Assembly: GCA_045545975.1 (NCBI GenBank)
Contig: JAZQCA010000022.1
Location: forward strand, 571-64,570
Source of the DNA: Akkermansia sp.
GTDB lineage: Bacteria; Verrucomicrobiota; Verrucomicrobiia; Verrucomicrobiales; Akkermansiaceae
Length of the DNA stretch: 64,000 bases
Direction of reading: 5' to 3'
This document shows positions 19,697-22,634 of this stretch, piece by piece. A program made the translations under genes and the position numbers. The number at the start of each line of letters is the position of its first letter. Position 1 is the stretch's first letter. The notes beneath the pieces are model-generated. The model worked only from the letters and a program-made list of their open reading frames with translations, was not told where the DNA came from and ran no database searches.

Positions 19697-19739
19697 CTCC
19701 CTGCGCTCTTTTAGAGAACGCACAGAACAAAGTTCGACT

Positions 19740-19827
19740 GGGCAGGTGTCTGAGTGGTCGAAAGAGCACGATTGGAAATCGTGTGTACGTCAAAAGCGTA
19801 CCGAGGGTTCGAATCCCTCCCTGTCCG
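19740..19827 (+). tRNA. tRNA-Ser(GGA), long variable arm, CCA not encoded
   Basis: Acceptor GGGCAGG/CCTGTCC, discriminator G; D arm TCT/AGA; anticodon arm CACGA-TTGGAAA-TCGTG; variable arm GTACG/CGTAC; T arm GAGGG-TTCGAAT-CCCTC. Confidence 0.96.
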
Positions 19828-19829
19828 TT

Positions 19830-19928: not shown

Positions 19929-20015
19929 CGGATGGGGTGAGATTCGAACTCACGGAAGGGATAAACCTTCGGCGGTTTTCAAGACCGCTGCATTAAACCA
20001 CTCTGCCACCCATCC
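19929..20015 (-). tRNA. tRNA-Ser(TGA), long variable arm, CCA not encoded
   Basis: Acceptor GGATGGG/CCCATCC, discriminator G; anticodon arm GCGGT-CTTGAAA-ACCGC; T arm GTGAG-TTCGAAT-CTCAC. Confidence 0.96.
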
Positions 20016-20153: not shown

Positions 20154-20393
20154 TCATGAGTCCCCGAAACTGGCGAAATCCGGGAATCCATCCGGGGCAT
20201 GACGTTCGAGAGTTTCAACCAGTTGACCGAGTGTGAGCAATTTACTCTCCTCTTTGCTCATATAGGCAGAGAACTGGTAGAGGGCAAGTTTGAGCACAGA
20301 GGTCCGATCGAGCTGGCGTTCATTCATGATGTCAGAGATAAAACGATGCATTTCTTTTGTGAAACGGAAGGAGCAGATTATTCGTGATGCCAT
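20154..20393 (-). CDS. Small ribbon-helix-helix (CopG/Arc-like) DNA-binding protein, putative
   Basis: Alternating strand IICSFRF followed by two amphipathic helices (TKEMHRFISDIMNERQ, DRTSVLKLALYQF); ATG at 20393 preferred over the TTG at 20438. Confidence 0.6.
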   Translation of the reverse strand: MASRIICSFRFTKEMHRFISDIMNERQLDRTSVLKLALYQFSAYMSKEESKLLTLGQLVETLERHAPDGFPDFASFGDS

Positions 20394-20445
20394 AGCGATT
20401 TTGGGGGTGTGAGGTTGTGTATGATATTTTATAGACAAATCATAG

Positions 20446-20463
20446 CGGACTACTAATCCGCTG
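20446..20463. repeat. Left copy of an 18-bp perfect inverted repeat (CGGACTACTAATCCGCTG)
   Basis: Exact reverse complement of 20609-20626; the site 20444-20462 reads AGCGGA-CTACTAA-TCCGCT (6-bp arms, 7-nt asymmetric spacer). Confidence 0.95.
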
Positions 20464-20608
20464 CACTCCGATTACCTCGCAAAGTATTCATATAAGAGGA
20501 CTTGCAACTTTTCCAAGGGAGTGTATTCGCATACAAATAAGACAAAGCGAAGCCTATTATTGTTCATAAGTTACGCCAATTCAGAGCTATTACGCATTTT
20601 TTTCTTTA

Positions 20609-20626
20609 CAGCGGATTAGTAGTCCG
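20609..20626. repeat. Right copy of an 18-bp perfect inverted repeat (CAGCGGATTAGTAGTCCG)
   Basis: Exact reverse complement of 20446-20463; reads AGCGGA-TTAGTAG-TCCGGT. Confidence 0.95.
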
Positions 20627-20656
20627 GTTCAGAATTCAAATATAACGTCATACAAT

Positions 20657-21568
20657 ATGAGAGCCCCGTTTCTTACAAATTTCAGCATCTGTCACCTGTG
20701 GAATACTCTACACCGCATCTTCCCCCGGCATATAGCTGGGCAAAGCTTTGCAGAAGCTGTGGAAATAGCGCTACAGGAAAAAGCAATGCGCAGACCTCGC
20801 ACACGAGCAGAGTTCCGAAACGTATGCGACAGGATTCTTCGACATACTCCAAGCCTGGCAGATCGAAAAATCTCACGCATATCCCGGGAAGAATGCGGCG
20901 AAATCATCCGCAGAGTTTTCCCTACGGCGCGGCAACAAGAGAAGGCCCGGCGTATTCTCCACAGTCTGTTTGAGATTAGTATACGGTACGGAAAATGCGT
21001 AAGTAATCCCATTGTCGGTATGGCGCGACCACAGCTCTGTGAAAACGAGGTTCGCCCATTGTCGTGGGAGCACTTACGAGCGCTGCTGAGAACAGCGAGA
21101 AAAAGAGAATTTCAATCTTGTATGCCTCCGCTCGGACTCATGCTTTGGGCGGGAATCCGACCGGCAGAGGTGTGCAGACTCCGCTGGAGCGACATCGACT
21201 GGGAGGAGAATGTCATAACTCTACGCCCCCAGCATAGTAAAACAGGAGGAGCTCGCCATGTTACACTCCAACCGGTTCTGGCTCGATGGCTGCAGGAGTC
21301 AGGAATGACGAGAGAGGGAAAAATCTGCCCTCCGAACTGGGAACGACGATGGAAGCGTTTGCGGACAATCGCCGGTGTGCTGCCCTGGCAGCAAGATGTG
21401 CTACGCCACACCTTCGCAAGCTATCATGCTAAGTTTTGGCGAAACTTCCCTCTGCTGCAAACGGAGATGGGGCACCGTTCAGCCGAATTGCTGAGGACGC
21501 GCTATCTGAGTATGTATGGTGTAACCAGAGAACACGCGATCATTTTCTGGCGCCCCGGAGGGTTGTGA
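20657..21568 (+). CDS. Tyrosine recombinase (core-binding plus catalytic domain, no arm-binding domain)
   Basis: GIRPAEV (R), SKTG (K), QDVLRHTFASY (xxLRH), MGH, RTRY (Y); N-terminal helical core-binding region ending in CVSNP; 303 aa. Confidence 0.92.
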   Translation: MRAPFLTNFSICHLWNTLHRIFPRHIAGQSFAEAVEIALQEKAMRRPRTRAEFRNVCDRILRHTPSLADRKISRISREECGEIIRRVFPTARQQEKARRILHSLFEISIRYGKCVSNPIVGMARPQLCENEVRPLSWEHLRALLRTARKREFQSCMPPLGLMLWAGIRPAEVCRLRWSDIDWEENVITLRPQHSKTGGARHVTLQPVLARWLQESGMTREGKICPPNWERRWKRLRTIAGVLPWQQDVLRHTFASYHAKFWRNFPLLQTEMGHRSAELLRTRYLSMYGVTREHAIIFWRPGGL

Positions 21569-21575
21569 CAATGTC

Positions 21576-22508
21576 TCAGGTATCGGTTCTCCAGAGCCCC
21601 ACCCCAGCCGCGCGCGCAGCTTTCTCAGCGGCTTCCAGCTCAAGAGCTTGGGGGTCCTTACCCAACCGCTTATAAAAGCGAGCCAATCCTTCCTTCAATA
21701 GTACAAGATTCACGCATACTCGTCCCACATACACCTTCCCCAGCAAGCGCCCATACCGATCTTTTTCCAGAGCTTCCACCCGAACAGATTTTTTCTCAAT
21801 CAACGCTTTCAGACGTGCGCGAGCCTCTAGCGAAAAAGGCTTCCCCTTTTCCGGAGCATCCACTCCATAGAGCTGTACCACTATGGGCTCATCATCCTCG
21901 ACGGAACAGCGAACTTTAATCGTATCGCCATCCATGACATACTCGCAGGTTCCCATCAACATACCCCCATTCTCTACAGATACATCCCCGGCAGAACCGA
22001 GATCGCTATCATCATCGGCAGCCGGACCCTCATGCACCGTACCATTCCGTTGGCGGAACGAGCGAGGGTTCTCAGCATTGTCATCCTTCCACACCCCCTT
22101 ACGGGTCTTACGAGCCAATTCCTGAGCCTCTGCAAGCTCAGCATCCGTGGAATGGAAGTCATAGAACCAGGCCAGTCCGGCCTTCACCATTTCCAGGTTC
22201 ACATATTTATTGCCGGCATAGACTTTAGCCACATAACGCCCGTACTGATCGACCTCCACAACCTCAATACGGACTATTTTTCCACGAGCCCATTTCTCGA
22301 GAAACTTTCTTGACTGGGCGGCATACGCCTGACCTTTCTCCGGAGCATCTATCCCATACAATCGCACTCGCTCCTCCTTCGTTTGTCCTTTCTGAATGAA
22401 CTTGAAGGAGTCACCATCCTGTACATAACTGCACCGCCCATGCAAGACCTCAGCAGAAGTCTCAGCGATCCCCATAAGTGCCAGAAAAAACGAAAAGAGA
22501 CGTTTCAT
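21576..22508 (-). CDS. Secreted thermonuclease (SNase) with two tandem nuclease domains
   Basis: Signal peptide; DGDSF/VRLYGIDAPE/DQYGRYVA and DGDTI/VQLYGVDAPE/DRYGRLLG. Confidence 0.88.
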   Translation of the reverse strand: MKRLFSFFLALMGIAETSAEVLHGRCSYVQDGDSFKFIQKGQTKEERVRLYGIDAPEKGQAYAAQSRKFLEKWARGKIVRIEVVEVDQYGRYVAKVYAGNKYVNLEMVKAGLAWFYDFHSTDAELAEAQELARKTRKGVWKDDNAENPRSFRQRNGTVHEGPAADDDSDLGSAGDVSVENGGMLMGTCEYVMDGDTIKVRCSVEDDEPIVVQLYGVDAPEKGKPFSLEARARLKALIEKKSVRVEALEKDRYGRLLGKVYVGRVCVNLVLLKEGLARFYKRLGKDPQALELEAAEKAARAAGVGLWRTDT

Positions 22509-22634
22509 GATGTAAGAAAGAGATTCCATACAATGAAGTAGTTTATCAGCAACGGGGTTCAGTATAAACAAACGGGAGCTTGTACGCAAGTTTTTTCTTG
22601 CTCCCGGATTTTTTATGTGCTAAGCTCAGCGCTC

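Follow-up and report, generated by a model that had tools for sequence, protein, structure and literature searches.

In a 64-kb stretch of DNA from an Akkermansia species (64,000 nucleotides, here called the window), a pair of inverted repeats occupies the gap between a tyrosine recombinase gene and a small divergent gene. Does the recombinase turn over the DNA between these repeats and, if so, what would the inversion switch? We put the probability at roughly 70% that this 181-bp element is an Akkermansia inverton of the GGATT-N3-AATCC type which moves half of a promoter.

The repeat pair and its flanking genes

The element is intergenic, lying between a small RHH-like gene on the minus strand and the recombinase gene on the plus strand. 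Its left repeat (IR-L, 20446-20463, CGGACTACTAATCCGCTG) and right repeat (IR-R, 20609-20626, CAGCGGATTAGTAGTCCG) form an exact 18-nt inverted repeat with 100% complementarity, the two arms being separated by a 145-bp candidate invertible segment (20464-20608), and the whole element including both repeats spans 20446-20626. IR-L, a putative recombination core site, consists of the core CGGACT-ACT-AATCCG plus CTG; the core of IR-R reads CGGATT-AGT-AGTCCG, with one half-site substituted (CGGACT, C for T). Each site is near-palindromic (AGCGGA c TA c TA a TCCGCT) around an asymmetric centre. The two centres, ACT and AGT, are mutually reverse-complementary, and the asymmetric centre together with the single C/T half-site difference is mirrored exactly between IR-L and IR-R. 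When the 19-nt site was searched for with up to three mismatches, only IR-L and IR-R were recovered from the window (0.01 expected by chance), and they make up the single CGGA-N7-TCCG pair of this type in the 2.3-Mb genome. IR-R ends at 20626, leaving a gap of 30 nt before the recombinase ATG at 20657, and the GC content of the enclosed segment is approximately 0.39 compared to 0.50-0.55 in the flanking genes. A preliminary description of this DNA had claimed exact 18-bp inverted repeats, opposed asymmetric spacers, a right copy 30 bp ahead of the recombinase ATG, an AT-rich interior of about 145 bp and an arm-less tyrosine recombinase, and all of these features were re-found here. Further out, the heptamer TGTATGA (20418-20424) lies 21 nt outside IR-L and is mirrored by TCATACA (20648-20654), 21 nt outside IR-R. 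Both copies are kept in a sister-species contig (L047), and the pair may represent a putative accessory binding site. A terminator-like call from the promoter scan (20462-20444) was discarded as being merely the palindromic core of IR-L.

The recombinase (20657-21568, plus strand, 303 aa) contains core-binding and catalytic domains only, with no arm-binding domain, and is a probable invertase. It matches PF00589 with an E-value of 3.6e-13 and 50 bits (cut-off 27). Matches to XerA, XerD and XerC are weak, the Xer-type models aligning over approximately residues 71-277, and a tyrosine-type DNA invertase model (NF007370) gives a sub-threshold 17 bits against a cut-off of 221. The genome encodes eight paralogues of this family, the window copy and seven others that are 36-43% identical to it, and across all eight the R (AGIRPAE), K (HSKTGG), R-H (LRHTF), H (GHRS) and Y (RTRY) motifs can be aligned. 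In contrast to most tyrosine recombinases, all eight carry Asp at the first-His position of H-x-x-R (PDVLRH), and this replacement is, judged from the alignment, a trait of the recombinase family. The paralogues carry an extra N-terminal helix region of about 40 aa that the window recombinase is without. Relatives of it are found in Akkermansia MAGs from goat, deer and other guts.

The divergent gene (20154-20393, minus strand) encodes a 79-aa RHH-like protein (MASRIICSFRFTKEM...) and is the probable output of the switch. A 94-aa TTG-started open reading frame was considered for this gene and rejected, because the L047 orthologue and 21 orthologues in the alignment agree on a start at 20393. 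No match to the protein was found in Pfam or NCBIfam. Its AlphaFold model (22 orthologues, pLDDT 88) displays an extended N-terminus followed by helices at residues 13-26 and 30-45 and then a third helix. The best Foldseek matches of this model in the PDB are RHH antitoxins, for example ParD/PrpA and KacA, all with E>1; against 7ycw_D (also E>1) the TM score is 0.74 with an rmsd of 2.0. Atlas features of the protein lie at 0.92 to CopG/RHH clusters, which is weak agreement, and its C-terminus carries a conserved AP..FP.F motif.

Recurrence within the genome and across the genus

An exact repeat pair of 15-20 bp, with 112-145 bp between its arms, is located directly 5' of the gene in six of the eight paralogues, and a genome-wide scan returned approximately 25 repeat pairs falling into four sequence classes. 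On these sequences the class of the repeat follows the clade of the recombinase. Class C repeats go with the recombinases on contigs C4 and C52 (69% identical) and class A repeats with those on C37, C58 and C32 (52-56% identical), and the window copy (C22) stands alone with class D repeats and has no second target repeat pair in the genome. The pairing of clade with class provides candidate invertases for classes A, C and D, these being the classes with an adjacent paralogue. Akkermansia is a much-studied gut symbiont, and the locus and its paralogues make this pairing testable.

The regions upstream of 49 homologues in other species of Akkermansia were fetched, and 48 of them entered a systematic scan together with the window. 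This identified a GGATT-type repeat pair at 42 loci, window included; some 40 further Akkermansia species show the order RHH-like gene, repeat pair, recombinase, with the divergent gene of 76-82 aa kept in approximately 35 of the 42 loci. Fifteen different central triplets occur among 40 loci, and the partner sites match one another in every locus, the centres still matching in two loci that have no long exact repeat. Since partner-matched centres are needed for recombination and not for independent operators, this favours recombination sites. The -35 block points toward the recombinase in 38 of the 42 loci and toward the RHH gene in the remaining four (L075, L080, L081 and L083), where TTGACC/TTGACA-17-TATGCT/TATACT/TAAGCT/TACGCT is completed at the RHH side. 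One of these flipped loci, L075, has the core GGATTTATAATCC in common with L088 and is colinear with it in the flanks (local scores 111 and 34), and the interiors of the two score 67 when one is reverse-complemented versus 18 in direct alignment, against a background median of 18. These alignments are evidence that the segment inverts within the window's orthologous group. The idea that the repeats are recombination sites served by the adjacent recombinase, already put forward in the preliminary description, thus draws support from the match to the genus motif, the six paralogues, the 42 loci and the occurrence of both orientations among orthologues.

The motif is also abundant in a one-contig genome of the same genus (G063; 2,664,102 bp), which contains 62 GGATT-N3-AATCC sites, many of them in mirrored pairs, versus none for the reversed control. 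Published A. muciniphila inverton coordinates (PMC11892184) had no correspondence on G063. On its contig C1, different invertons have the same triplet CCC/GGG (for example 266638/266870, 812395/812564 and 2436888/2437033); centres are therefore not unique to one pair in this genome, and recombination between distant switches is conceivable. The recombinase-adjacent invertons of G063 face secreted proteins, which suggests that an RHH output is special to the window's orthologous group.

The alternative that survives best, which we consider unlikely though worth weighing, is a fixed control region, in which the near-palindromes would serve only as operators, bound by a dimer of the RHH protein or of the recombinase in a repressor role, which would thereby autoregulate the divergent pair, and the inverted relation of the sites would be ancestral or a consequence of their palindromy. 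RHH proteins commonly autoregulate through near-palindromic sites, and each of the two sites here is near-palindromic, as operators are. The RHH-proximal site lies in a longer palindrome, ATAG..CTAT, with both sides conserved, and a single orientation is found in all of the approximately 11 assemblies of the window's own and sister species. However, independent operators would need neither the exact mirroring of the centre and the C/T difference nor centres that are always matched in pairs. The common core moreover flanks read-validated invertons with no RHH gene nearby, and orthologues of the element are found flipped.

A proposed movable half-promoter

The left and middle parts of the enclosed segment are poorly conserved and its right end is conserved, and this right end contains a T-tract (20597-20603) and a -35-like hexamer, TTTACA (20605-20610), on the plus strand, reading outward through IR-R with the last two bases of the hexamer inside the repeat; the predicted 17-nt spacer of the promoter is 20611-20627. 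All 42 homologous loci have a cTTGAC block with a T-rich run 1-3 nt inward of one repeat and of one only, and the consensus of the -35 side in these loci is tttt..CTTGaCa.CGGATTa.cAATCCg and that of the other site atAGCGGATTA.cAATCCGC-TAT.cT. On its outer flank, the RHH-proximal site has C-TAT.cT in at least 80% of the 42 loci, and no conservation was found among them in the outer flank on the recombinase side. In the window, a fixed -10-like hexamer, TATGAT (20439-20444, minus strand), lies one base outside IR-L and faces the RHH-like gene. No recognisable -10 is present on the recombinase side at the required position in the present orientation (20628-20633, plus strand), where TTCAGA has 2/6 matches to TATAAT as scored, like the other hexamers, against an E. 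coli-type consensus from which Akkermansia promoters may differ. Because the conserved -10 sits outside the segment, the movable part would be a half-promoter; only the -35 is conserved within, and a complete promoter of the kind enclosed by fimS was not found there. The TAT.CT box is also part of the palindromic extension, so that its conservation could reflect protein binding instead of promoter function.

The same layout is widespread. In the window's own genome a TTG-type -35-like block is found at one inner end of 19 out of 19 repeat pairs (read by eye from the scan output), and class A pairs have cTTGC, the 17-nt core and then TATACT or TAGTAT on one flank only. In G063 the half-promoter layout is present in 14 of 15 repeat pairs. 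The sister-species locus L047 is 76% identical overall, with both repeats 100% identical and with the -35/T-tract end, the -10 and the outer flanks kept, while the rest of the interior has diverged; the retention of the repeats, the -35/T-tract end and the -10 at this level of divergence argues for continuing selection on the parts of a switch.

The preliminary description had instead pictured inversion as pointing a whole internal promoter, TTGGCG-17-TAGGCT on the minus strand (20579-20551), at either the RHH gene or the recombinase. These hexamers are indeed present, but they are not conserved in L047, are absent from the 42-locus consensus and are uncalled by the promoter scan, and we do not retain them as the switch promoter. 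The geometry of redirection holds, with the correction that only a -35 would move, not the whole promoter. A promoter-scan match at 20628-20656 (TTCAGA-17-TACAAT) was also rejected. Its -10 ends one base before the recombinase ATG, and it cannot serve this ATG because the -10 abuts it and the N-terminus shows protein-level conservation in L047.

In the mechanism that we propose, the adjacent tyrosine recombinase would bind both near-palindromic cores, and strand exchange within the asymmetric centre (ACT/AGT) would invert the 145-bp segment, which would bring with it only the T-rich run and the -35 (TTTACA), the repeat core supplying the 17-nt spacer. In the assembled state the -35 would be directed toward the recombinase, leaving the RHH gene with TATGAT and no -35. 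With TTCAGA at the -10 position, transcription of the recombinase would be weak at best in this orientation, and the RHH gene, with a -10 and without a -35, would be OFF. In the inverted state the -35 would lie beside IR-L and complete TTTACA-17-TATGAT, turning the small RHH-like gene ON. The flipped junctions are predicted to run from IR-L into TAAAGAAAAAAATG... and from ...AATCGGAGTG into IR-R, giving ...CTAATCCGCTG joined to TAAAGAAAAAAATGCG and ...AATCGGAGTG joined to CAGCGGATTAG. The RHH protein could then be a regulator; alternatively, by acting on the extended palindrome ATAGCGGA..TCCGCTAT of the RHH-proximal site, it could provide feedback or influence the direction of inversion. We infer that the window copy flips in the present day, that the adjacent recombinase is responsible, that the hexamers work as a promoter and that the RHH protein has a role of this kind, and the element might likewise be called a 'self-referential bistable' switch, as it was in the preliminary description. 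If the RHH protein does have a feedback or regulator role, the locus would constitute a self-contained bistable memory element.

A broader proposal, to which we give somewhat less than an even chance, is that Akkermansia invertons generally, the window's included, are half-promoter switches in which an UP-like T-tract and a -35 move, the core acts as the spacer and a fixed outer -10 picks the switchable flank. As part of the same tentative proposal, the switched RHH protein would be a phase-variable regulator or a feedback/directionality factor, the invertase would be a dedicated one, and the recombinase clades would name candidate invertases for classes A, C and D. A half-promoter layout would explain how one short segment serves either flank. 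It also implies that orientation alone does not predict expression without the outer -10, a consideration that matters for data of the PhaseFinder type. A phase-variable small DNA-binding protein in approximately 35 species could constitute a hidden layer of population heterogeneity.

Orientation at the window locus itself is uniform, with no flipped copy among approximately 11 assemblies of its own and sister species. Contigs of the own species from ENA and Logan (L067/L111, L068, L112 and the partial L070) agree with the window, the sister-species contigs (L047 and L113-L116) are in the reference orientation, and so are the Logan contigs that span both repeats in runs X1, X3 and X4. Exact-protein look-ups likewise recovered the reference orientation in every contig spanning both repeats, and the Logan contigs of four runs contain no strand-changing joints. 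A scan of metagenomes with the 18-mer added one further two-site contig (L047), and the 21 single-site contigs that it also returned did not align with the locus; the runs that hold the window sequence are ruminant gut metagenomes. All of these orientation data are from consensus contigs, from which rare variants are dropped and which would hide a minority variant, so that the flipped state would be at most a minority. Comparison of orientation across related assemblies, which the preliminary description had suggested as a check, is divided in its outcome: the own and sister species are uniform, the four orthologues named above are flipped, and at the window locus no flipping was seen. In one run from a sheep metagenome (X5) the contigs break at IR-R, one ending at 20630 and the next starting at 20609, at a depth of 4-6x. 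This break could result from mixed orientations or from low depth, and with no clean k-mer branch to fit it is suggestive only.

The uniform orientation of all own and sister-species assemblies would also suit an element that is an inverton by descent and now flips rarely or on a trigger, with the RHH gene constantly OFF and the recombinase kept for some other role. We give this longer odds than the operator alternative. The half-site CGGACT, which departs from the genus consensus, and the want of any other target pair for the recombinase in the genome are in keeping with such a locked state. Against it, the repeats are 100% conserved at a locus identity of 76%, the -35/T-tract end and the -10 are conserved along with them, and the recombinase reading frame is intact with its motifs. 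Finally, a reading so improbable as to merit no more than dismissal takes the recombinase for an integrase whose mobile island entered at tRNA-Ser, the small gene for an excisionase and the repeats for residual att/core sites. Integrases often target anticodon arms, and two tRNA-Ser genes do lie upstream (19739-19828 and 19929-20015). The core site at 20445-20465 resembles an anticodon arm in its 5-7-5 geometry and, probably by chance, shares 71% identity with the tRNA-Ser(TGA) arm at 19972-19992. However, the repeats are inverted, 145 bp apart and between two genes, there are no island-flanking direct repeats, an identical layout occurs at six paralogues in the own genome and at 42 loci, neighbour genes differ among the own-genome paralogue and G063 loci that were inspected, and the genes nearby in the window (Suf genes, an SNase nuclease and an FMN reductase) are of an ordinary chromosomal kind.

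Relation to known switches and other repeat families

Inversion switches are established in this genus. PCR, restriction digestion and long reads have shown that an inverton switches the cps1 capsule locus in Akkermansia (mBio 2026, PMC13343947), and the same paper gives the genus inverton motif of Jiang et al. 2019 as CGGATT..AATCCG. For A. muciniphila, 32 read-supported invertons of one motif group, 'group 138', have been described (Microbiome 2025, PMC11892184). The window core fits CGGATT..AATCCG with one substitution, and orthologues carry the exact motif. The element and the A. muciniphila invertons share the genus, the core motif, a pair-specific centre and a TTGAC block just inside one repeat, as well as the size range (17-19-bp repeats, 120-290 bp apart). 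They differ in that the A. muciniphila invertons control capsule, PEP-CTERM proteins and autotransporters, whereas the window element faces an RHH-like gene and its own recombinase, and in that the motif of the former is CGGATT, whereas one half-site of the window element is CGGACT and no inverted copy of this element was seen. Invertases near invertons are generally not positioned for inverton-driven expression (PMC11892184), and no invertase for the known Akkermansia invertons is named in PMC11892184 or PMC13343947. The window element is very probably a new Akkermansia inverton of a kind (Akkermansia inverton, tyrosine recombinase) that is already known. In the literature covered, which leaves aside Jiang et al. 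2019, we found no description of the half-promoter layout, of a repeat pair 5' of most invertase paralogues or of a conserved RHH output, and a search for 'split promoter' invertons or Akkermansia invertases returned nothing relevant.

Further afield, the fimS element of E. coli with its recombinases FimB and FimE has in common with the window a short invertible segment, inverted repeats and small arm-less tyrosine recombinases encoded adjacent to it. In the fim system, expression of the recombinase genes depends on the orientation of fimS; they are encoded upstream of this element and receive no transcription from it. At 314 bp with 9-bp repeats, fimS contains the whole fimA promoter, whereas in the window the -35 is inside the segment and the -10 is fixed outside. 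The RecV-dependent switches of Clostridioides difficile upstream of cmrRST and pdcB (PMC9286219) put a regulator, and through it other genes, under phase-variable control; in this they resemble the window element, whose putative output is likewise a regulator and not a surface structure. In C. difficile many switches depend on a single distant recombinase and often work through promoter or 5'UTR orientation, whereas the window has a dedicated recombinase beside a single site pair and would move half a promoter. The Tsr family of Bacteroides ('cluster 3b') also comprises several paralogous invertases per genome, each near its own class of repeat. Bacteroides invertons carry a complete Bacteroidetes-type promoter, and their invertase genes are reported to be oriented such that the inverton cannot drive them, in contrast to the window's genome, in which the repeat pair is directly 5' of the invertase gene in most paralogues.

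The scan of the own genome also brought up repeat families beyond the window's own pair. Nine pairs of class CAGCATTnnGAATGCTG, with arms 125-137 bp apart, are candidate invertons on the basis of their sequence (C7:51412-51586, C1:5429-5599, C35:23338-23500, C52:33877-34039, C53:26959-27121, C33:38697-38855, C37:16279-16450, C58:17189-17349 and C32:3040-3206). In all of them cTTGC(A) lies within one end, and a TATACT/TAGTAT-like box is situated outside one flank; three of the nine adjoin recombinase paralogues, and several are assembled with the -35 toward the flank that has no -10. A second class, ATCTC(A/T)TTTGAAA...GAGAT, has arms 118-171 bp apart (C12:6928-7093, C37:4593-4809, C31:36764-36967, C57:8531-8703, C18:8183-8334, C53:2729-2880 and C69:19151-19302). 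Within one end it carries a TTGTCA/TTGACA block, and it is not adjoined by a recombinase gene. The two paralogues without a repeat pair of their own (C36:44820 and C15:14924) are candidate enzymes for this second class. Outer inverted repeats of 55 and 30 nt enclose class-B pairs at C31:36686-37050 and C37:4531-4870, respectively, and these nested arrangements could be compound or double switches. A unit of approximately 295 bp occurs in four copies (C13:20624-20920, C52:34925-35219, C55:61083-61377 and C59:533-823), bounded by the 18-nt inverted repeat CAGGGCAAACGCATTAGG with 259 bp between the arms, and resembles a small mobile or repetitive element more than it does an inverton. To the right of the window recombinase lie a gene for a secreted protein with two tandem staphylococcal-nuclease domains (21576-22589, minus strand), convergent with the recombinase gene, and a gene for an FMN reductase.
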